Positions 52,229 through 60,428 of a DNA stretch of 64,000 bases are shown here, piece after piece. Source of the stretch: Candidatus Poribacteria bacterium (GTDB lineage: Bacteria > Poribacteria > WGA-4E > WGA-3G); contig OZ251518.1 in the NCBI GenBank assembly GCA_965242965.1, forward strand, positions 4,768,001 through 4,832,000. The letters are read 5' to 3'. Made by a program: the position numbers and the translations under genes. The notes under the pieces were generated by a model. It did no database searches. It was not told where the DNA came from and was given only the letters and a program-made list of their open reading frames with translations. Every line of letters starts with the position of its first letter. The first letter of the stretch is position 1.

Positions 52229-53405
52229 CAGCGGTTCCGGCATCGGCGGTGGGCAACGGAGTCTGCTACTGCTGATAAGCCGGTTAGATAAAAACCGTTT
52301 TCGTCCTTTTGTCGGATGCATGAGTGACAGCCCCTTTTCCGCAGAAGTGGCGAAGACAGATGCGCATGTCGTGCCGTTGTCTCTCCCCGCGGCGCACAAT
52401 AAACTGGACAGAACAGATAGGACGCGGCGGTTTACCTTCCGTGATATTCTGAACGATTTAGGGCATCTCCGGGCGATTTATCAAATTCATCGCGCTGTGA
52501 AAAAGCACGAAATTGAACTCATCCACGCCAACTCACTCTCCGTGGCACTGCTCGGCGGCATCGTGGCGAGATGGCACCGCATCCCGATTGTGATGCATAA
52601 ACGGTATGCCACCTCTTACGGCATTTTGGACAAGGTATGTGAAAGGCTCCTGCATCGCGTGATTCTGGTTTCGGAGGCAACGCGATGGGATTTCGCGCCA
52701 GAAAAAAAGCAGTCCTTAATCTATAACGGGGTTGATTTAGCGGCTTTTCAGGCGACAGAGACAGAGGTGGAAACGCTTCGCGCGGAACTCTTATCCACAT
52801 CCGCAGGCGCGCTTGGGAAGCACGGTGCTACAATAATCGCAGGTGTCGTCACCCGAATTACGCCAGAAAAGGGCATCCACTTTCTAGTCCGAGCAATGGC
52901 GGAACTGAAGCGTAAGGACAGATTTCCACATTTGTCCGACATCAAACTCCTCATCGTCGGCGGCCCCTATTTTCAGAAGGACCGCGGTTATATGGCATCG
53001 CTTGAGCAAGAAGTCGCGGATTTAGGCGTTGCAGACAGCGTCATCTTCACCGGATTCTTACCCGATACGCGCGTCGTCACCTCACTGCTGGACATCGTGC
53101 TGGTGCCGTCTATTATTCCTGAGGCATGCCCGCGCACGATTATTGAGGCGATGGCGGTAGGCAAACCTGTCATCGCTACGCCGCTCGGTGGGAGTAAAGA
53201 ATTGGTTACGCCAGAAACGGGGCTGTTGGTGCCGCCCGAAGATGCCTCGGCGATTGCTTCTGCAATTGCGACGTTGGCAGCCGACCGGGGAAGGTTAACG
53301 GCAATGGGAGAGGCGGCGCGCTTACGTGCAGAGGAGTTGTTTAGCAGTGAGAAGAATACGGTGTTAACGGAGACGGTTTATACGGAATTGTTAATGGGCA
53401 AATAG
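52185..53405 (+). CDS. glycosyltransferase family 4
   Basis: GGGQRS, IHAN, VSEA, IYNGVD, R...KG, E......IEAMA.GKPVIAT..GG..E. Confidence 0.92.
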   Translation: MKTSDTSRCNILYLDSGSGIGGGQRSLLLLISRLDKNRFRPFVGCMSDSPFSAEVAKTDAHVVPLSLPAAHNKLDRTDRTRRFTFRDILNDLGHLRAIYQIHRAVKKHEIELIHANSLSVALLGGIVARWHRIPIVMHKRYATSYGILDKVCERLLHRVILVSEATRWDFAPEKKQSLIYNGVDLAAFQATETEVETLRAELLSTSAGALGKHGATIIAGVVTRITPEKGIHFLVRAMAELKRKDRFPHLSDIKLLIVGGPYFQKDRGYMASLEQEVADLGVADSVIFTGFLPDTRVVTSLLDIVLVPSIIPEACPRTIIEAMAVGKPVIATPLGGSKELVTPETGLLVPPEDASAIASAIATLAADRGRLTAMGEAARLRAEELFSSEKNTVLTETVYTELLMGK

Positions 53406-53488
53406 AGCAGAATCGCCACCGCCTCCGTGGGACGAGGGACAGGCCCTCGCCCTACGAGCCCGGAACTCTCGTCAGAGATGAATTCGCA

Positions 53489-54298
53489 TTAGACAAGCGT
53501 CTTCAGAAAATCGATGCTCCGCTTCGCAATCGTCTTCGGCTCGGGTTTGAAATCAAACACTTCCGTTGAGACATAGCCGCTGTAATTAATCGCCTCCAAC
53601 GCCTCAATGATAGGCGGATAGTCAACGTTACCGGAACCGGGGAGGTAGCCGTTGTCGTCATTGGAGTGGAAGTGCGCGACGTGCGGCGCGCAGTTATGAA
53701 TCTGCGTCGGCATGTCCAAACCTTCCTTCGCAGTGCTGCAGACATCCAGAATCATCTGGAAATTCGGGTGATTGACAGCGTTTACCATCTCCACCGCCGT
53801 GTCGGGGTTCGTGATAAAGTTTGTCTGATCGCTGGATAACGGTTCCATGCAAAGCATCACGTCTTTGTCGCCTGCGAGTGCTGCGCCTTCGGTGAACGTC
53901 TCGCGGGCGTAGTCCCACGCCTCTTCAAAAGAGAGGGGTTCCATGACGTTCCGTTGTTGCGGTGAACCGATTACCATGACGCGGCCGCCTAAATCGGCGC
54001 ACAATTGAATCAGCGCGAGGAAATAGTCCCGCGTTTCGTTCCGAATCTCTGCATCGGGGTGATTGATATAGAGTCCCGGTGGTGAGACGAGCAGCCAGTG
54101 GAGTCCGGCGATTTCTATCTGCGCGGTTTCGGCGGCTTTTCGGATGCGTGCGCGTTCGGTTTGGCTGATGTCTAGCACTGAGTCTGCCAGCGTAAACGGC
54201 GCGATTTCAACTGCTTCGTAGCCGAGCTCAGCGGTGTAGGTAAAAACGTCCTCAATCTTCCAATTTTCAAACATTTCGTTGCATATCGCGAGTTTCAT
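53489..54298 (-). CDS. sugar phosphate isomerase/epimerase (D-tagatose 3-epimerase-like TIM barrel)
   Basis: MKLAICNE, GYEAVEIAP, CMEPL, ILD, HFHSND, PGSG.VDY, YSGYVSTEVF. Confidence 0.9.
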   Translation of the reverse strand: MKLAICNEMFENWKIEDVFTYTAELGYEAVEIAPFTLADSVLDISQTERARIRKAAETAQIEIAGLHWLLVSPPGLYINHPDAEIRNETRDYFLALIQLCADLGGRVMVIGSPQQRNVMEPLSFEEAWDYARETFTEGAALAGDKDVMLCMEPLSSDQTNFITNPDTAVEMVNAVNHPNFQMILDVCSTAKEGLDMPTQIHNCAPHVAHFHSNDDNGYLPGSGNVDYPPIIEALEAINYSGYVSTEVFDFKPEPKTIAKRSIDFLKTLV

Positions 54299-54356
54299 TT
54301 TCTTCTCCTATTGCGGGATGTGAGGCGGCGCGGTGTCGCACCGCGCCGCCGGTGGC

Positions 54357-54590
54357 TTAGTTCAAGTATTCATCCAAAACCTTCTTGAAGTCGTCCGGGG
54401 AACCTGCTAGCATCGCTGCCCGATGCAACTCAGTCAGATGCTCCAAATCTTCAATACGCTCCAAACTCGGTTTGAACCGGTATGCGATTTCAGGGTGCAG
54501 CCGAATCTCCAGCACCTGAAGGATGGCCTCTCGTCCTCCCTCCCTCATGGCGGGCGCGGCCAAGTATTCGTAAAGATCAGATTCGTGCAT
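54357..54590 (-). CDS. free-standing Rpn C-terminal module (RpnS-like), cassette 3
   Basis: 77 aa, MHESDLY...SPDDF. GAGG RBS. Confidence 0.8.
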   Translation of the reverse strand: MHESDLYEYLAAPAMREGGREAILQVLEIRLHPEIAYRFKPSLERIEDLEHLTELHRAAMLAGSPDDFKKVLDEYLN

Positions 54591-54648
54591 GGTGTGCTTA
54601 CCTCAATGAAGATGAGGCGGCGCGGTGTCGCACCGCGCCGCCGGTGGT

Positions 54649-54882
54649 TTAGTTTGAGTGTTCATCCAAAACTTTCTGAAAGTCGTCCGGGGAATCTGCC
54701 AAGGCAGCCCCACGGAGCAGCTTGCTGAGGTGTTCCAAATCTTCAATGCCTTCCAAACTCGGTTTGAACCGGTATGCGATTTCAGGGTGCAGCCGAATCT
54801 CCAGCACCTGAAGGATATCTTGCAAGGCGCGTTCTCGGGCGGCGGGCGCGGCCAAGGATTCGTAGAGATCAGATTCGTGCAT
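54649..54882 (-). CDS. free-standing Rpn C-terminal module (RpnS-like), cassette 2
   Basis: 77 aa, GAGG RBS, mosaic of neighbouring copies. Confidence 0.8.
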   Translation of the reverse strand: MHESDLYESLAAPAARERALQDILQVLEIRLHPEIAYRFKPSLEGIEDLEHLSKLLRGAALADSPDDFQKVLDEHSN

Positions 54883-54940
54883 GGTGTGCTTCCCTCAATG
54901 AAGGCGAGGCGGCGCGGTGTCGCATCGCGCCGCCAACGGT

Positions 54941-55174
54941 TTATTCGCCGGTTGCGTCCAAAACTTTCTGGAAGTCGTCCGGGGAATCTGCCAGAACCGC
55001 TGCACTAAACAATTCGTTTAGGCGTTGCATGTCGTCAATGGGCTCCAGACTGGGTTTGAATAAGCGCGCCGTTTCGGGTTGTAATCGGAGTTCTAGTGCC
55101 CGAAGGATATCTTGCAAGGCGCGTTCGCGGGCGGCGGGCGCGCTCAAGGATTCGTAGAGATCAGATTCGTGCAT
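54941..55174 (-). CDS. free-standing Rpn C-terminal module (RpnS-like), cassette 1
   Basis: 77 aa, GAGG RBS, most divergent copy. Confidence 0.8.
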   Translation of the reverse strand: MHESDLYESLSAPAARERALQDILRALELRLQPETARLFKPSLEPIDDMQRLNELFSAAVLADSPDDFQKVLDATGE

Positions 55175-55232
55175 GGTGTGCTTACCTCAATGAAGGTGAG
55201 GCGGCGCGGTGTCGCACCGCGCCGCCGGTGGT

Positions 55233-55466
55233 TTAGTTTGAGTGTTCGTCCAAAACTTTCTGGAAGTCGTCCGGGGAACCTGCTAGGACAGCTGCACGGA
55301 GCAGCTTGCTGAGGTACTCCAAATCTTCAATGCCTTCCAAACTCGGTTTGAACCGTTGCGCCTCTTCAGGCTGCAGCCGAATCTCCAGCACCTGAAGGAT
55401 GTCCTCTCGTCGTCCCTCCCTTAAGACGTGCGCGCCCACGTGTTGGTAAAGATCGGATTCGTGCAT
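55233..55466 (-). CDS. putative intragenic in-frame small protein (RpnS-like) nested in the Rpn gene
   Basis: AGGAGG-cacacc-ATG inside the Rpn CDS. Same 77-aa length and start as the downstream cassettes. Confidence 0.7.
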   Translation of the reverse strand: MHESDLYQHVGAHVLREGRREDILQVLEIRLQPEEAQRFKPSLEGIEDLEYLSKLLRAAVLAGSPDDFQKVLDEHSN

Positions 55467-56111
55467 GGTGTGCCTCCTAATCATTTCCAAAATTTGCTCT
55501 TTCTCATAATCCAAATTGCCCAACATCGCCATGCCACCGAGGTAGGCTAGCTTGTCCGGCACTTCAAGGCTATCCGCGGTCTGGATGCACCGCCGTAACC
55601 ACTCATCCTTGTCCACATCAGCGGGCCGCTTCATCAGCGGCGTGAAGGGAATTAACCCCGTAGTTTTCGCATCCAAAATTGGCTGGCCGTCCATTTCGGC
55701 GAGCCGAACAACTTCATATTCAACCAGAACCTGATTGCCAGGGAGGTTCTGCTCAAATTTGCCCGGGTCGTTTCGCCCCGCGTCGGGACGAAGATAGACG
55801 ACGGTGGAGTAAACATCCATCCTGTAAGTTTCGATCAGCAGGAGGATGTAGACTGCCATGCGGAGAGCCATCGGCGGATCGAAACTGTCCGCGGTTTGAA
55901 ACTCGATGTGGACTAAGACATATTTGCCTCGGAATTTCACCTTGATGAGGACATCTGCCTGATGCATGACAACATCCGGAATTTCAGGCGAGATGACTTC
56001 AACATCGGTTAAATCCTCCACAGCGAGATTTCGCAGGTTGAAGCAGAGACGCACGAAATCTAGTGGATTTTCTTGCGCCTGCTTTTTAGAGGTGCTATCA
56101 AAAATTGCCAT
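55233..56111 (-). CDS. Rpn/YhgA-like PD-(D/E)XK nuclease
   Basis: FD...K, ADVLI...LVHIEFQT, MALRM..Y, VYSTVVYL, YEVVRL, L.PF.PLM. GGAG RBS before ATG 56111. Confidence 0.88.
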   Translation of the reverse strand: MAIFDSTSKKQAQENPLDFVRLCFNLRNLAVEDLTDVEVISPEIPDVVMHQADVLIKVKFRGKYVLVHIEFQTADSFDPPMALRMAVYILLLIETYRMDVYSTVVYLRPDAGRNDPGKFEQNLPGNQVLVEYEVVRLAEMDGQPILDAKTTGLIPFTPLMKRPADVDKDEWLRRCIQTADSLEVPDKLAYLGGMAMLGNLDYEKEQILEMIRRHTMHESDLYQHVGAHVLREGRREDILQVLEIRLQPEEAQRFKPSLEGIEDLEYLSKLLRAAVLAGSPDDFQKVLDEHSN

Positions 56112-56168
56112 CCTTACTCCTGTTTGGCGGCGCGATTTCCGCACCACGCCGCAATTGTTTCTCTGTTA

Positions 56169-56198
56169 ATTATACACTACGTTCGCGGATAATGTCAA
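56169..56198 (-). promoter_or_regulatory. consensus sigma70 promoter for the Rpn locus
   Basis: TTGACA-N18-TATAAT on the minus strand. Confidence 0.75.
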
Positions 56199-56226
56199 CC
56201 CTTTTTTTATACCTACGAAAAATCCC

Positions 56227-56254
56227 TTGACAATACCCCGAATATCTGTATAAT
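56227..56254 (+). promoter_or_regulatory. sigma70 promoter (divergent)
   Basis: TTGACA-N16-TATAAT. Confidence 0.7.
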
Positions 56255-56289
56255 AAGCACATATCACCCACGAAAAATGGAGAAACAAA

Positions 56290-57138
56290 ATGGGATACAC
56301 TTTCGATCCGAACGCAATGTATCGGATGCCCACGCATTTTGGACCGAGGACTGGCCCCAGATTCGGACCCGAGGGCAGAAAATTTGAGTGTAAGGACAAC
56401 CCAAAGTCCACATCGATTTCGGTGAGTTTCCTGACGAACAGCGAACAACTAGAGGCTTTCCTACCCCCAGGTTTCGCGCTCAATGGCGAACCCGTTGTAT
56501 CGGTGTCAGGCGGCTATATGAAGGAGATCGAGTGGCTGGCAGGCCGCGGCTATAACACACTGGGTGTCAGTTTCCCCGTGGTTTTCAACGGCGAAGTAGA
56601 TCGCGCTACCGGCTCTCTTTTGACGGTGCTCTGGGAGAACCTCACAGACCCGATTTTGACCGGGCGCGAGGAACTCGGCTTCTCGAAAATTTACTGTGAA
56701 CTCCCGGAACCGCTCACGTTCAAAGGCGAGACGCACTGCACCGCCAGCTGGCTCGGTTTTAAGTTTATGGACATGCACGTGCGCGCGATGGAACAAGTGC
56801 CTGTCCCGAATTCGCCATCACCGCCGAAGCAAACCAACGCCGAACAACCGCTCACCGGCACATTGCACTATAAATACATGCCGCGGACGGGGGAATGGGG
56901 CACTGCCGATGTTGCGTATGCGGTGCTAACACCGGCAAGCACGCCGAATCGCGTCGTTAAAGAACATTGGCGCGGCGAAGGCACGGTGCAATTCCATAAG
57001 GCGCGCTGGGAAGATCTGCCGACGCAGTATAACATTGTCAACGCGTTCCACGCTCTTGAAGTTATAGAGTGGCGTGGCGCGTCTATTGTGAAAACAGTCG
57101 GCGGCAAAGATCTACGCGACCAGCGGATTCTGCGGTAA
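56290..57138 (+). CDS. acetoacetate decarboxylase family protein
   Basis: YRMPTHFGP, LEAFLPPGF, WLAGRGYN, VLWEN..DPI.TGREELGFSK. Confidence 0.85.
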   Translation: MGYTFDPNAMYRMPTHFGPRTGPRFGPEGRKFECKDNPKSTSISVSFLTNSEQLEAFLPPGFALNGEPVVSVSGGYMKEIEWLAGRGYNTLGVSFPVVFNGEVDRATGSLLTVLWENLTDPILTGREELGFSKIYCELPEPLTFKGETHCTASWLGFKFMDMHVRAMEQVPVPNSPSPPKQTNAEQPLTGTLHYKYMPRTGEWGTADVAYAVLTPASTPNRVVKEHWRGEGTVQFHKARWEDLPTQYNIVNAFHALEVIEWRGASIVKTVGGKDLRDQRILR

Positions 57139-57154
57139 TGATTTTTTGTTGTTC

Positions 57155-57343
57155 GCGAGGCACTCCTGTCCCTCGCCATCGTTTTGCTGTCAGACCGCAT
57201 CACTCCTGTAGTTCAGGATCGCCTGCTCCTGACCCGTTCGGGAGCAGGCGCTCCCGAACTACAGAGGTGGGCCCAATGTCTTCCGGTATTCGCCTGCCCT
57301 CCAAAGGGGGATAACTACCGAAACGGAGTTATGAAACACCCTC
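57155..57343. mobile_element. MITE remnant with only the right TIR
   Basis: Ends with CCGAAACGGAGTTATGAAACACCCTC. Largely the reverse complement of 19229-19360. Confidence 0.7.
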
Positions 57344-57345
57344 AA

Positions 57346-58182
57346 TCAGTCCATCACGCTGCCGCCCGCGACGGTGACAGATAACCCAGTCAGATACGCG
57401 GCTTCTTCGGAGGCGAGGAATGCGGCCATGTTCGCCACGTCCGCGCCTTCGGCGAGCCGTCCTAACGGCACCGATGCCTCCGCGCGCCGCGCAAACTCAT
57501 CACGTTGCTCATCGGCGGAGAGCGATGCCGACATTAAGGCGGATGCCAGATGGCCGACACGCTCTGTATCTACAAGGCTTGGACAGATGGCGTTGACGTT
57601 CACGCCGTGCGGCGCGAGCTCATACGCAAGCGACTGCGTTAACCCGATAACGGCGAATTTTGATGCACTATAGGCCGCATAGCGCGCCGAACCGCGTTTT
57701 CCGGTCACAGACGAGAGATTGATAATCTTGCCGCCGGTCCCTTGCGAAATCAGGCGGCGTGCTACGGCTTGGCAGCAGAGGAACACGCCTTTCACGTTAA
57801 CGCGCTGCACTCTATCCCATTCTTCTTCGGCGAGTTCAACGATAGGCACCCGGTCCTTCCCGGCGATGGTTCCGGCGTTGTTGACAAGGATGTCGATTTT
57901 CCCGAAGTGCGCCGCAGTCTTGTCTACCATCTCGGCTACCTGCGCTGCATCTGAAACATCGGCGACGACGCTGAGGGCGCGCTGCCCCATCGCTTCGATC
58001 TCGCGGACGACATCTGGCAAGCCTTGCCATTCCGTTTCATTCGCGGCGTAAGGATGCGCGGTGATGTCGTTGACGGCTAGGTCTGCGCCTTCTTTCGCTA
58101 AGCGGGTGGCGATGGCGCGGCCGATGCCGTTTTTGCCGCCCGCGCCTGTCACCAAGGCGACTTTTCCGTTTAGGTTATACAT
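57346..58182 (-). CDS. SDR family oxidoreductase
   Basis: ALVTGAG...GIGRAIA, LVNNAG, YSASK, VNAICP. Confidence 0.95.
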   Translation of the reverse strand: MYNLNGKVALVTGAGGKNGIGRAIATRLAKEGADLAVNDITAHPYAANETEWQGLPDVVREIEAMGQRALSVVADVSDAAQVAEMVDKTAAHFGKIDILVNNAGTIAGKDRVPIVELAEEEWDRVQRVNVKGVFLCCQAVARRLISQGTGGKIINLSSVTGKRGSARYAAYSASKFAVIGLTQSLAYELAPHGVNVNAICPSLVDTERVGHLASALMSASLSADEQRDEFARRAEASVPLGRLAEGADVANMAAFLASEEAAYLTGLSVTVAGGSVMD

Positions 58183-58205
58183 TTGGTTACCTCTTTATTC
58201 GGTAG

Positions 58206-58480
58206 ATCGCGAGGGACAGGCCCTCGCGCTACGGTTAAGGGACAGCATGCAAGGGACAGGCCCTCGCGCTACGGGGAAAAACGCTGTCCTTTCACGGAAC
58301 GATCGCGAGGGACAGGCCCTCGCGCTACGGGAAAAACGCCGTCACGTTACGTAGGGCGGGGGCCTGTCCCCCGCCATGCTGCGGTCCACCGGAAACTCGC
58401 GAGGGACAGGCCCTCGCGCTACCGGAAAAAAACGCTGTCCTTTCACGGAACGATCGCGAGGGACAGGCCCTCGCGCTACG
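58206..58480. repeat. tandem GTAG-REP cluster
   Basis: Five (C)GCGAGGGACAGGCCCTCGCGCTAC-type units and a repeated AAAACGCTGTCCTTTCACGGAACGAT. Confidence 0.85.
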
Positions 58481-58499
58481 CGAAAAAAACGCGCCCCTG

Positions 58500-60428
58500 C
58501 TACGGAGACCAGAGCACATACGTCGGAATACCGAACAACGTGCCGAGTAATGCCCACAACCCAACGAACACATAATCGCCCATGACTAAACCCAAAAAGA
58601 ACGGAATCGCGCGTTGGTGCATCCGCAAACCGAAGATGGTAATAATGATAAACTTCACTAGCCAGCCGAGGAAAACCGAGAACCAGAAATCGGCGAGCCC
58701 ACCCCATGTCGCCGCTGTCATCACATACCCGATCGGATGAAAGGGCCACCACATAAATTTATGTCGCAGGAAATAGAGGAACCCTGTCATCACTGCGCCG
58801 ATGCCCATGGACTGCGTGCCGCCCCAGTCCGGTCCGGTAGGATTGTTGATCCACCGTTCCAAGCGTCTGCCGAAGACTTCTTCGCCGATGCCGACGATAT
58901 AGCCATGCACCGCCAATGCCCCGGTCTCGTATAGCAGGTAAAGGAACGCCCAAAACGAGGCGAGCGTGCCGATGATAATAGCGAACATCATCACCCAGAC
59001 GAGTTTTCGGCTGTTTATTCCGGCGCGTTCGGCGAGTTTGAAACCTTCCAACTGATTCGGCATTGGATGCGAGACGTTCAACCGATTCAGCCAATAGTAG
59101 AAGGAGATTATTGTCAAGTTGCCGGTGCCGACAAAGCGTGGGCCAAACGTGACTGCCATTAATCGGGCCGGGTCCAACGCGAGGATCTCGTGCGAGGGGG
59201 GACCGAATTCGGCGCGCACGCGTGTCACGCCGAGTGCCATCAGCGTGAAGATGACGATAAAACCGAGAACGCCGCCTAATGACATGCCTGCCTGTATTGA
59301 AAACAGCGTTAGCCCGATGCATCCTAGCACGAGCCCGAAGACAGCCGTTCGGTAAGGCATCGGTTCGTCTGAATCGTCAAGCGTTTTCTTGGCAGAGAAA
59401 CAGTTGCGGATAACGTCCCCTAGATGTCGGCGTGTTCCCCATAATGCGAGAATGCCGACAGCGAGCCACGCGCCGCCGGCGCGTTCCGCAAAATAGAGTT
59501 CCCCTTCGCCGAGCATCCCGACGCGGATAACCCGTTCCGCCTTCCCGAATAGGTAGAAAAACCACGCCGACATCGAAATATCCAACGGCACGAAGAACGT
59601 CAAGCCAATGATAAACGGGTAGGCAGATAGCGATATCCACCCGATAGCGTTCCAAGGTTTGTCGGTGAAGAGATGTGTGATTGAGTAGTAGTTGAGTTGG
59701 ATGGATGGCACTTGTGGAAAGAGGTAACTCAGCCCGGAGAGCAGTTCAATAAACCCGGCGACTGCGAACCCTATCCACATCGTGCCGTTTTTGTAAAAAC
59801 TTTTGCGTCCCTCTGCCATCTGAAGTGGGAGTTGGATGATGGGATACGCGAGTTTTTCGCGTTCTGTCCACTGCACCCGGATAATCGTGTTGAGGCAGAT
59901 GAGCGTGAACCACAGCACGGCGACGAAGCCTGTCCAGACGAAAATCGGGATAGCCCACCCGCGCAAATGCTTGGGGAGATGGAACGTGGAATCGCCCTCG
60001 AAATAGGCATCTAACGCGCTGTTGTCCGGGACGAACCACGTTGGAATGTAACGCCAGAAGAGTGCCGCCCATTCATTTTCCGGCGTGGCAAATCGGAAGG
60101 GATGCGCCAGTGTGCCGACGAGGAACGTCATCATGGAATGGCCGCCGATGGTGGATACCATGACAACCATGATATAGATGACGAGCAGTTCCTGCGGTGT
60201 CAACGCGTTGCGAGGCGCGAGGCTCTTCCACAGCATGTTGACAGCGATAATAGCAAACAACGTGAAAATTGCATTGAAGAAGAGCGAGACGAAGTTGAGC
60301 AGGAACTGCGGTTGAATCATCTCCGCGGCATAAGCGAGCCAATAGGCGTTCCCGATGACGAGGAACGTCCCGACAAGCAGCGCGCGGAGAGTGATTCCAG
60401 AGGTGTGGGCGGCCTGGCGTTTTCGCAT
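58500..60428 (-). CDS. polytopic membrane protein (DUF6785/DUF6784-like, putative transporter)
   Basis: Many TM helices. QW...EKL.YPI.QLP, TR.RAE.G, WWPFHPIGY, PFFLGL..G. TAATG coupling. Confidence 0.8.
   Translation of the reverse strand: MRKRQAAHTSGITLRALLVGTFLVIGNAYWLAYAAEMIQPQFLLNFVSLFFNAIFTLFAIIAVNMLWKSLAPRNALTPQELLVIYIMVVMVSTIGGHSMMTFLVGTLAHPFRFATPENEWAALFWRYIPTWFVPDNSALDAYFEGDSTFHLPKHLRGWAIPIFVWTGFVAVLWFTLICLNTIIRVQWTEREKLAYPIIQLPLQMAEGRKSFYKNGTMWIGFAVAGFIELLSGLSYLFPQVPSIQLNYYSITHLFTDKPWNAIGWISLSAYPFIIGLTFFVPLDISMSAWFFYLFGKAERVIRVGMLGEGELYFAERAGGAWLAVGILALWGTRRHLGDVIRNCFSAKKTLDDSDEPMPYRTAVFGLVLGCIGLTLFSIQAGMSLGGVLGFIVIFTLMALGVTRVRAEFGPPSHEILALDPARLMAVTFGPRFVGTGNLTIISFYYWLNRLNVSHPMPNQLEGFKLAERAGINSRKLVWVMMFAIIIGTLASFWAFLYLLYETGALAVHGYIVGIGEEVFGRRLERWINNPTGPDWGGTQSMGIGAVMTGFLYFLRHKFMWWPFHPIGYVMTAATWGGLADFWFSVFLGWLVKFIIITIFGLRMHQRAIPFFLGLVMGDYVFVGLWALLGTLFGIPTYVLWSP

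Follow-up and report, generated by a model that had tools for sequence, protein, structure and literature searches.

A divergent Rpn-type nuclease gene followed by tandem free-standing copies of its C-terminal domain in Poribacteria

In this analysis, we describe a divergent Rpn-type locus in a Poribacteria genome, in which the gene for a putative nuclease is directly followed by three tandemly repeated, free-standing copies of its C-terminal coding region. Our preferred interpretation, which we hold with moderate confidence, is that this accessory 1.9-kb locus combines the nuclease with tandemly duplicated S genes, which would act as extra or alternative partners of the nuclease and as a source of new C-termini for it. 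Translation of the small products, their binding to the nuclease, toxicity and its neutralisation, a role in defence, and the function of the hairpins are properties that we infer. All positions refer to the window, i.e. the whole stretch of 64,000 nucleotides that was analysed.

The nuclease gene and its internal start

The main gene (55233–56111, minus strand) was called as an open reading frame of 292 amino acids with an ATG start. The predicted protein has the layout of an Rpn-like 'L' form, consisting of an N-terminal PD-(D/E)XK nuclease domain, a helical linker and a helical C-terminal domain, and its AF2 model has a pLDDT of 93.4. Residues 4–137 of this model match NucS (2vld_B; Z 9.2, rmsd 2.9, 101 aligned residues) and the PD-(D/E)XK proteins AF1548 (1y88_A; Z 8.3) and 1xmx_A (Z 7.6). 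D53 is invariant within a set of 49 homologs, at least 90% of which also have E70 and Q72; in hhalign alignments, D53 is placed on the Rpn Asp and the HIEFQT motif on IEHQS. The N-terminal domain is predicted to fold as a PD-(D/E)XK nuclease that has kept the catalytic D ... E-x-Q residues. A Foldseek search with the full model of the main protein returned no match at E<=0.001, and sequence searches of the PDB with the main protein and with the family profile gave nothing usable.

The sequence-only reading had labelled this gene Rpn/YhgA-like. The label stands in the sense of distant homology (hhalign Prob of about 92), whereas the curated Pfam and NCBIfam models failed to recognise the gene. 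By hhalign, the family profile matched RpnE with a Prob of 92.9 and an E-value of 3.6e-7 over 203 columns, which extend from the catalytic core into the C-terminal domain, and it matched E. coli RpnA, RpnB, RpnC and RpnE taken together with a Prob of 92.2 (E 5.9e-7, 95 columns). The match to RpnA alone was weak (Prob 13.8), and a profile of the 58-residue C-terminal core gave no significant match to YpaA (Prob 3.8). No Pfam or NCBIfam model, including PF04754, PF12784 and the NCBIfam Rpn models, matched the main protein or the 77-amino-acid cassettes at E<=1, and 10 paralogs produced no Rpn-type match in the same collections. Across the genome, PF04754 scored 14.1 bits at best, below its cut-off of 21, while PF14261 (DUF4351) had no match at E<=1, including the four 77-amino-acid products. 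When the 49 homologs were searched, DUF4351 was matched by four of them (best E 8.8e-6), and PDDEXK_2 and Transposase_31 by one each; the single PF04754 match among them has an E-value of 0.0082. Where checked, the DUF4351 matches lie at residues 217–274 of distant full-length homologs and reach 20.9–23 bits against a cut-off of 25. PADLOC gave no match for the main protein. The main gene is a distant homolog of the Rpn nucleases that is detectable by profile–profile comparison only, and a large Rpn-like family escapes the current Pfam, NCBIfam and PADLOC models.

An internal Shine-Dalgarno sequence, AGGAGG (55473–55478, minus strand), which is read as the codons Arg-Arg, is located 6 nt (cacacc) before an in-frame ATG at 55466, just as the sequence-only reading had noted. 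This ATG defines unit 0 (55233–55466, minus strand), a 77-amino-acid RpnS-like 'S' form that equals the C-terminus of the main protein and, judging from its start signals, may be translated separately. GGAG or GAGG precedes the in-frame linker ATG in 44 of 53 fused family genes, compared with 6 of 339 in-frame ATGs in the N-terminal domain. In other subfamilies, the GGAGG of the internal start is read as Glu-Glu (GAGGAA), i.e. the codon context varies while the signal is kept. In the family consensus, the linker Met is followed by GxxxG repeats of four amino acids. These repeats are present in variable number in sister subfamilies and are lacking in the subfamily of the main gene, so the length-matching rule of Rpn proteins is not directly applicable here.

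The cassette array and its genomic setting

Three further open reading frames of 77 amino acids follow on the minus strand. Cassette 1 (54941–55174), with its GAGG at 55188–55185, is the most divergent copy and has 37 private sites; cassette 2 (54649–54882) is a mosaic; and cassette 3 (54357–54590) carries a helix-1 block of the unit 0 type. That these frames are intact, have their own GAGG ribosome binding site and recur with an exact 292-bp period had been seen before, and the open reading frame call and Tandem Repeats Finder (period 292, 4.0 copies, 77% matches, score 1339) agree on it; a repeat search gave spacings of 292, 292 and 292. In each free-standing frame, GAGG is found 10 nt upstream of the ATG. 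The similarity between units begins some 18 nt ahead of the internal ATG and runs to about 8 nt past the hairpin described below. The duplication boundary thus coincides roughly with the internal start, as had been proposed, and takes in the internal ribosome binding site as well.

The copies differ from each other at 17–33% of their coding positions, and an assembly artefact was rejected on this ground. Cassette-specific pieces with 0–1 differences are present in short-read contigs from four public runs, the best-matching of which is possibly the source sample. Among the public runs compared, no short-read contig spans the array. The 18 public runs listed for the locus include no RNA run. In one contig, X1, cassettes 2 and 3 follow each other in register (288+4 = 292), but the joints X1 and X6 were detected at 88% likeness and have to be read with caution.

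All four units are followed by a hairpin, GGCGGCGCGGTG-CGA-CACCGCGCCGCC, which has a GC-rich stem of 12 bp and a loop of 3 nt. The hairpin is perfect after unit 0 (55200–55226, minus strand), where the flanking stretch folds with -32.6 kcal/mol (z -5.3), and after cassette 2 (54616–54642, minus strand; z -4.5). It is also perfect at the end of the array, which it closes (54324–54350, minus strand; z -3.25), 26 nt short of the next gene, whose start codon is at 54298. After cassette 1 (54908–54934, minus strand), it contains one stem mismatch (92% complementary; flanking stretch z -1.5). The hairpin noted earlier in the spacers and at the array's end is present at all four places, once with a mismatch, and in three of the four unit-flanking stretches the folding is far better than in shuffled sequences. 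A degenerate copy claimed upstream of the main gene is real and weak: the corresponding stem-loop in the 5'-UTR (56127–56152, minus strand) is 79% identical and has a centroid stem of 10 bp (-18.6 kcal/mol, z -2.46). Less was left of a proposed CCTCA/TGAGG pairing over the ribosome binding sites, because, of the three spacers between cassettes, only one shows it in the minimum free energy structure from RNAfold, as a stem of 5 bp (ACCUU/GAGGU), a weak signal. The spacers are highly conserved, for which recent gene conversion is possible instead of function. A genome-wide REP element was considered and rejected, since the hairpin occurs only at these four places in the 5.7-Mb genome. The hairpins were not scored as terminators on the strand of the gene and have no T tract behind them, and a search of Rfam with positions 54200–56350 gave four chance-level matches, all far under the gathering scores.

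A sigma-70 consensus promoter (56169–56198, minus strand; TTGACA, 18 nt, TATAAT), which fits 12 of 12 consensus positions, is located upstream of the main gene. No other promoter-like site was found on the minus strand in 53400–57200, and so none inside the array. With a single such site in this interval, main gene and cassettes probably share one transcript. The whole accessory segment of promoter, gene and array (54312–56217, minus strand) lies between two conserved divergent genes and represents a presence/absence polymorphism. In a genome of the same genus (G002), the flanks are 85–88% identical and only 155 bp apart, with an unrelated spacer sequence between them; in genome G001, the array coincides with contig breaks. 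The ends of the segment show neither a target-site duplication nor a terminal repeat, and the neighbours of the locus are housekeeping-type genes rather than a defence island. The bacterium that carries the locus on its Poribacteria chromosome is a sponge symbiont.

Coding constraint, mosaicism and recurrence

The cassettes are real genes under purifying selection. When computed on the DNA of the four copies, dN/dS was 0.14–0.42 at dS values of 0.37–1.58, and no copy contains a stop or frameshift. These values do not agree with a neutral evolution of the cassettes, which the sequence-only reading had named as an argument against its own proposal. In pooled searches, 33 of 35 related database proteins were exactly 77 amino acids long; the 34 database proteins matched by cassette 2 comprise 32 of exactly this length and two of 133 amino acids. 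An alignment of 35 sequences of 77 amino acids is free of indels and has 27 invariant columns out of 77, and the opening seven residues (MHESDLY) vary little or not at all. Shine-Dalgarno sequence and ATG are both present in all three free cassettes of this array; among the 41 free cassettes of the fetched loci, 32 have both.

The patchwork nature of the copies, noticed earlier, is reflected in the order of the quartet-informative sites, which run CCACCCCCCCCCCCCCAAABBCBBBBCCAB. This clustering, with 9 switches between patterns, was attained in 0.07% of 10,000 permutations (p=0.0007). Block combinations are also visible in the alignment of the 77-amino-acid sequences. Cassette 2 has the block pattern claimed for it, being cassette 1-like at codons 8–22, cassette 3-like at codons 32–38 and unit 0-like at codons 45–77, and the helix-1 block of cassette 3 differs from unit 0 by 9.5 non-synonymous and 0.5 synonymous differences. 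Cassettes 1 and 2 have an ARERALQD helix, cassette 3 and unit 0 a REGxRE helix. Variability peaks at residues 8–22, with 1.10 bits compared with 0.11–0.86 bits in the other blocks. This position matches the hypervariable site of RpnS, which is described as 4-amino-acid repeats located 8–20 residues after the internal Met (PMC10400941).

C-terminal domains of different types are also found fused to closely similar nuclease domains. In the ortholog P0002, the N-terminal domain is 99.1% identical and the C-terminal domain 71%, and a database protein with 95% identity to cassette 2 (P0272) shares a contig with this ortholog. In two other orthologs, P0005 and P0006, a cassette 1-type C-terminus (78–82% identity) is fused to the N-terminal domain. 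Near-identical N-terminal domains with other cassette types fit the earlier idea of a donor library for the C-terminus of the nuclease, in which the swapping of cassettes into the nuclease gene is itself a step that we infer.

In Poribacteria, the free-standing layout of the C-terminal domain is a trait of the family. This genome contains 32 C-terminal domains, of which 14 are free-standing, behind 9 of the 18 full genes; an orphan cassette lacks a nuclease gene beside it. Of the 61 genomes that represent the family, 60 contain C-terminal domains, with as many as 77 per genome. In the array survey, which covered this order, similar arrays behind rpn-type genes were found in the genomes G004 and G055, and arrays recur in several subfamilies and genera. 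G004 contains 1+3 arrays, whose cassettes vary in how many QGIQ or RGLE repeats they have, as well as at least 7 full genes in 13.5 kb, while the 1+3 array of G055 shows an ABAB pattern. In the fetched best-match loci of other genomes, a free cassette is located behind 4 of 27 full genes.

Known systems and possible roles of the free-standing copies

In E. coli, rpnE-ypaA (rpnE-Ss) and rpnC-Ss contain a separate downstream rpnS gene that is derived from the upstream gene (Zhong et al. 2023, PMC10400941). As these single downstream copies are already reported there, the arrangement as such is not new; the sequence-only reading had been unaware of a described array of this kind. The array is an expanded form of this known arrangement, which the main text of that paper presents with one extra copy in E. 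coli, although its supplements (Fig. S1B, Fig. S3, Dataset S1) may hold longer arrays. As in rpnE-ypaA, stand-alone copies of the C-terminal domain are located directly downstream on the same strand, alongside an internal start. Different from rpnE-ypaA, there are three copies with an exact period, hairpins and block mosaics, the cassettes are intact whereas ypaA is annotated as a pseudogene in K-12, and the proteins fail the curated Rpn and DUF4351 models. The locus also resembles the RpnL/RpnS systems of E. coli (RpnA, B, C and P2) by its PD-(D/E)XK N-terminal domain with D...ExQ, its helical C-terminal domain, its internal SD/ATG and a hypervariable stretch soon after the internal Met, for which 4-amino-acid repeats are present in Poribacteria sister subfamilies. 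The subfamily of the main gene, in contrast, varies by substitution blocks and not by repeat number. RpnA-S in the crystal comprises 49 residues and is described as a three-helix bundle, whereas the cassette of 77 amino acids is modelled with four helices (pLDDT 85.3). The structural matches of the cassette model are generic helical bundles (Foldseek E of at least 0.9, VIA Z of at most 6.9), and RpnA-S (7TH0) is not among the matches listed. Tandem arrays of whole rpn genes have been attributed to tandem direct duplication without flanking target-site duplications (Zhong et al. 2023, PMC10400941). Such whole-gene arrays are also present in Poribacteria (G004), but the array described here repeats just the S-encoding quarter of the gene.

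The orphan toxin-tip/immunity cassettes that follow cdiA and rhs genes and the silent pilS cassettes of Neisseria likewise form arrays of alternative C-terminal modules downstream of a full-length gene, with which they recombine to change its specificity, and they are usually promoterless or startless fragments. In contrast, each copy in the array keeps its SD/ATG and encodes a putative inhibitory partner and not a toxic tip.

In the mechanism that we propose, the long protein is a PD-(D/E)XK nuclease that would act as toxin, and its C-terminal domain would probably also be made alone from the internal SD/ATG and bind the long form as an intragenic antitoxin, as in E. coli Rpn. The 292-bp unit, consisting of the internal ribosome binding site, the 77-codon C-terminal domain, the stop codon and the 3' GC hairpin, was tandemly duplicated into three stand-alone 'S' genes, probably co-transcribed from the one consensus promoter. 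The copies have been kept as coding genes that differ mainly in the first helix, the region setting L–S pairing in Rpn, and they exchange blocks by in-register recombination. Because coding capacity is kept, the first helix differs and blocks are exchanged, the copies are most likely extra or alternative S-type partners of the nuclease. They would also feed new C-termini to the nuclease via gene conversion or unequal crossing-over.

This last step could be taken further. The array would then be a built-in diversification device of a defence nuclease, a library of expressed specificity cassettes for the C-terminus. Repeated in-register copying among these cassettes, and from them to the nuclease gene, would let lineages switch L–S pairing combinatorially. 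We consider this extension possible but rather unlikely. If true, it would provide an analogue of antigenic variation in a toxin–antitoxin system, and the conserved GC hairpin at the unit ends could mark the place of recombination or cleavage, perhaps by the recombination-promoting nuclease itself.

Rpn S proteins are reported to be specific for their own L form (PMC10400941; PMC10400984), and an S protein with a mismatched helix fails to neutralise its L protein (Zhong et al. 2023, PMC10400941). With 18 full-length paralogs in the genome, the free cassettes might thus serve in trans as an antitoxin bank against the 17 paralogs or against incoming Rpn-like nucleases, and not against their own neighbour. 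The orphan cassette would suit such a role, as would the locus L016, where both free cassettes are nearer to a distant tandem pair (L012; 72–83%) than to their own neighbour (69–70%). However, each of the three array cassettes is closest to the C-terminal domain of the adjacent gene (66–81%, compared with 57–62% for the next-best fused domain), and of the 14 free cassettes in the whole genome, 9 resemble their own neighbour most. We regard a bank in trans as improbable; in its earlier form, directed against paralogous Rpn toxins, it has no counterpart for this array, as the C-domain cores of all other full-length genes in the genome are at most 62% identical to the array cassettes.

The block mosaicism and the C-domain turnover beside a 99%-identical N-terminal domain could also be explained if the cassettes mattered only as silent DNA donors for conversion of the C-terminus, their proteins being dispensable. 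In line with this, fusion of the N-terminal region with the small downstream gene has been noted in E. coli Rpn systems, where such genes may also be lost through deletion (Zhong et al. 2023, PMC10400941). Silent donors need neither a Shine-Dalgarno sequence nor an ATG, yet both are kept in this array and in most free cassettes of the fetched loci, and the MHESDLY start is nearly constant in 35 sequences, which makes a pure donor role very doubtful. We are equally sceptical of a function outside toxin–antitoxin biology, in which the long protein would be a recombination or mobility enzyme and the free C-terminal domains regulatory or targeting subunits that form mixed oligomers with altered DNA specificity. 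Rpn proteins were reportedly first described, by Kingston and colleagues in 2017, as recombination-promoting nucleases, and the expansion of the family to up to 77 C-terminal domains per genome and the presence/absence polymorphism of the locus would fit such an activity. On the other hand, terminal repeats or target duplications were not found at the insertion, and the closest characterised relatives are described as a toxin with its antitoxin (PMC10400941). Least probable, and already disfavoured, is a functionless by-product, for which the GC hairpins would be sites of slippage or unequal crossing-over, possibly promoted by the nuclease, and the duplicated gene ends would be drifting: the exact period, the direct repeats, the palindromes at the unit ends and the free cassettes behind only 4 of 27 full genes elsewhere would agree with it, but dS reaches 1.58 at dN/dS of 0.14–0.42 without a stop or frameshift, 33 of 35 relatives have exactly 77 amino acids and arrays exist in several subfamilies and genera.

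Under the preferred reading, in which the copies are extra or alternative S-type partners of the nuclease, several mismatched S genes would be maintained by purifying selection beside one L gene, which is seen more plainly in the G004 arrays, whose cassettes differ in 4-amino-acid repeat number only, and is unexpected under a model of one toxin and one antitoxin. The locus touches on the reason for the hypervariable shared C-terminal domain of Rpn proteins and on the mode of toxin release. Its one L protein and four S proteins form a small natural collection on which pairing specificity, dominant-negative regulation and switching of the C-terminus could be examined. Prediction of a complex between the main protein and cassette 2 lends weak support to such pairing, with a score of 0.37 compared with 0.02 for the best control. 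Of 80 solved complexes, 58 attained the mark applied to these predictions, as did 2 of 110 mismatched pairs; in the range up to 0.60, the passing pairs comprise only 7 of these 80 solved complexes along with both mismatches. The prediction runs agree in at least 94% of the contacts, and the partner is modelled with a pLDDT of at least 82.

Organization of the array and its coding units

On the minus strand, at 54322-56198, an open reading frame of 292 amino acids (56111-55233) contains an internal start signal (AGGAGG-cacacc-ATG, 55478-55464) that opens an in-frame 77 amino acid product, and it is followed by three further intact 77 amino acid frames starting at 55174, 54882 and 54590 (cassettes 1 to 3; unit 0 is the C-terminal 77 residues of the main protein). 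All these elements of the sequence-only reading were recovered, as was its exact 292-bp period: TRF returned period 292 with 4.0 copies and 77% matches, and a repeat search gave inter-copy spacings of 292/292/292. The same search located a 12-bp GC hairpin 3' of all four units, three of them perfect and one with a mismatch, and no further occurrence of it elsewhere in the 5.7-Mb genome; the copy proposed to precede the main gene is present as a weaker relative in its 5' UTR (10-bp stem, z -2.5). A sigma-70 promoter with 12/12 consensus positions (56198-56169, minus strand) serves the Rpn-like gene, and the promoter scan found no promoter-like sites within the array. The array is real, clearly delimited and under selection.

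A second sigma-70 promoter (56227-56254, plus strand), also 12/12, serves the divergent 282 amino acid gene at 56290, so that two perfect consensus promoters stand back to back on opposite strands at 56169-56254; the plus-strand promoter is also kept in G002, a genome of the same genus without the Rpn-like locus.

Pairwise dN/dS of the units is 0.14-0.42 at dS 0.37-1.58. A database search with cassette 2 retrieved 34 proteins, 32 of exactly 77 amino acids and two of 133, and 35 aligned sequences, each of 77 residues, show zero indels and 27/77 invariant columns. The copies are old and have been maintained as coding sequences. The first 36 nt of the spacer, from stop codon to hairpin, differ by only 0-3% among units 0, 2 and 3, versus 29-52% synonymous differences for the same pairs, a similarity that either constraint or a recent gene conversion could explain.

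The 1.9-kb locus (54312-56217) is accessory, because its two flanking genes lie 155 bp apart in G002, with an unrelated spacer sequence, and because the contigs of a second Poribacteria genome, G001, break at the array. Comparison with these two genomes revealed no target duplication or terminal repeats. On either side of the neighbourhood, short intergenic stretches of 25-180 nt (53433-53457 and 57165-57347) recur dozens of times in G001 and G002; they are a REP-like repeat of dispersed type. ORF translations derived from similar repeats (...GTGPRAT..., ...ARDRPSPY...) occur at 58060-58580 and beside several Rpn-like paralogs.

A divergent Rpn-like family with internal start signals

The main gene had been read as Rpn/YhgA-like. 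Pfam and NCBIfam gave no match for the window protein or ten paralogs, and the assignment stands only at the level of distant homology. The confident AF2 model (pLDDT 93.4) resembles PD-(D/E)XK nucleases over residues 4-137 (NucS Z 9.2, AF1548 Z 8.3, VC1899 Z 7.6), followed by Can2/Card1 and restriction enzymes. Phmmer against 1.84 billion representatives returned 795 relatives; 49 aligned relatives contained family-model matches to DUF4351 (4/49, in the C-terminal 60 residues), PDDEXK_2 (1/49) and Transposase_31 (1/49), all below cut-offs. With this 49-member alignment as hhalign query, E. coli RpnE was matched at Prob 92.9 (E 3.6e-7), RpnA+B+C+E at Prob 92.2 (E 5.9e-7) and RpnA alone at Prob 13.8; the Rpn D aligns with D53, and IEHQS with HIEFQT. 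On these scores and aligned residues, the family was named Rpn-like: it is homologous, with the same architecture, but outside the membership of the curated models.

Among the fetched loci, 44/53 fused family genes, in which the C-domain is joined to the nuclease N-domain, carry an in-frame linker ATG with GGAG/GAGG at -4 to -15, compared with 6/339 N-domain in-frame ATGs, the former being counted per gene, among kin, and the latter per ATG. The internal GGAGG codes for Glu-Glu (tcGGAGGAAaccATG) in some subfamilies and for Arg-Arg (AGGAGG) in the window subfamily; its retention under different amino acids argues for selection acting on the RNA signal.

According to Zhong et al. 2023 (PMC10400941), RpnS is made from internal starts and neutralises RpnL, their pairing being set by 4-amino acid repeats 8-20 residues after Met. 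RpnS also occurs as a separate gene, which in some species is DUF4351; downstream copies include ypaA, behind rpnE, and rpnC-Ss. Each of them originates from its own upstream gene and can disappear through deletion or through fusion with the N-terminal region. Koonin's commentary (PMC10400984) speaks of "a second copy of RpnS". The window array is a multi-copy, mosaic version, in a divergent family, of the arrangement that Zhong et al. describe with one extra copy. Among the papers listed by literature searches (RpnS/RpnL/intragenic antitoxin; DUF4351; recombination-promoting nuclease plus antitoxin since 2023), none dealt with multiple free-standing S genes in an array.

Mosaicism and possible roles of the free cassettes

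The patchwork character of the copies was borne out. Quartet-informative sites are clustered in runs (9 switches, permutation p = 0.0007), and in the 35-sequence alignment the variable blocks (residues 8-22, 32-38, 45-60 and 69-77) are combined in many ways. Block 8-22 varies most (1.10 bits per column); it is of the same type in unit 0 and cassette 3, yet differs there by 9.5 non-synonymous versus 0.5 synonymous changes, a pattern that, with such small counts, is no more than suggestive.

The locus is most likely an Rpn-type L/S system (long and small C-terminal form) in which the S-coding unit would have been amplified in tandem. The S genes would be expressed as partners with different helix-1 codes and would also serve as a source for recombination with the C-terminus of the long form. 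For the window locus, we infer toxicity, L-S binding, translation, and roles of the system in defence and of the hairpin. The predicted complex of the main protein with cassette 2 scored 0.37 (best control 0.02; contact agreement at least 94%, partner pLDDT at least 82), weakly supporting that the two may bind; the mark was reached by 58/80 solved complexes and 2/110 mismatched pairs, and a pass at or below 0.60 is wrong in most cases, except where the pairing was already likely beforehand.

The proposed donor library is consistent with the orthologs of the main protein. Identity to P0002 is 99.1% for residues 1-215 and 71% for 216-292; P0005 and P0006 share 86-87% in the N-domain and have a cassette 1-like C-domain (78-82% identity to cassette 1, 58% to unit 0). 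Single contigs from two public short-read runs join 54771 to 54484 with 4 letters between (X1; one period, in register) and 55477 to 54318 with 8 letters between (X6; four periods), and are hints only because both were found at 88% likeness.

The sequence-only reading also proposed an antitoxin bank guarding against paralogous or incoming Rpn toxins. This idea lacks a target at the window array, where the C-domain nearest in sequence to each cassette is that of the adjacent gene. At another locus of this genome (L016, C1:5531800-5533605), however, both free cassettes are 72-83% identical to the fused C-domains of L012 (C1:3435502-3437697), two tandem genes at a distance of 2.1 Mb, versus 69-70% to their neighbour, a pattern that suggests exchange between loci or pairing in trans.

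Distribution across Poribacteria

This genome holds 18 full-length genes and 32 C-domains, 14 of them free-standing: 13 behind 9/18 full genes (three in the window array, pairs at two loci and single cassettes at six) and one orphan. The orphan (C1:21572-21847) is a stand-alone 91 amino acid gene with an MHESDL... start, and its surroundings lack a gene for an Rpn-like nuclease; the best match of its core (61%) is the C-domain of the window gene.

Within the taxonomic family, 60/61 genomes have C-domains, the highest number being 77 (G004); by hand count, about 66/150 among the matches listed lie in open frames below 200 amino acids. At the best-match loci of other genomes, 4/27 full genes have a free cassette beside them. 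G002 and G001 have arrays of one fused copy plus two free cassettes (1+2). In one 1+3 array of G004 the fused copy has 10 QGIQ repeats, whereas the free cassettes have about 3, 6 and 8; a second has 7 RGLE repeats fused versus 2, 2 and 3 free, with periods of 292/292/304. In these arrays a stem-loop commonly follows the stop codon of a unit; its sequence varies, and it is weak in 2/8 arrays.

The 1+3 array L057 (G055:C5:1419500-1420420; period 240-241) alternates cassette types A-B-A-B, as would follow from duplication of a block of two units; only a few nt separate each unit stop from the next ATG, and the copies showed no SD. Single in-frame TAA/TAG codons between or inside domains (L025, G003:C32; L030, G013:C1; G023:C1:387865-388752) may mark broken genes, or a division of the N-part and the C-part between two genes. 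A super-array in G004 (C1:5263500-5277000) has at least seven full-length Rpn-like genes with free C-domain cassettes interspersed, and the 4-amino acid repeat number varies widely among its copies.
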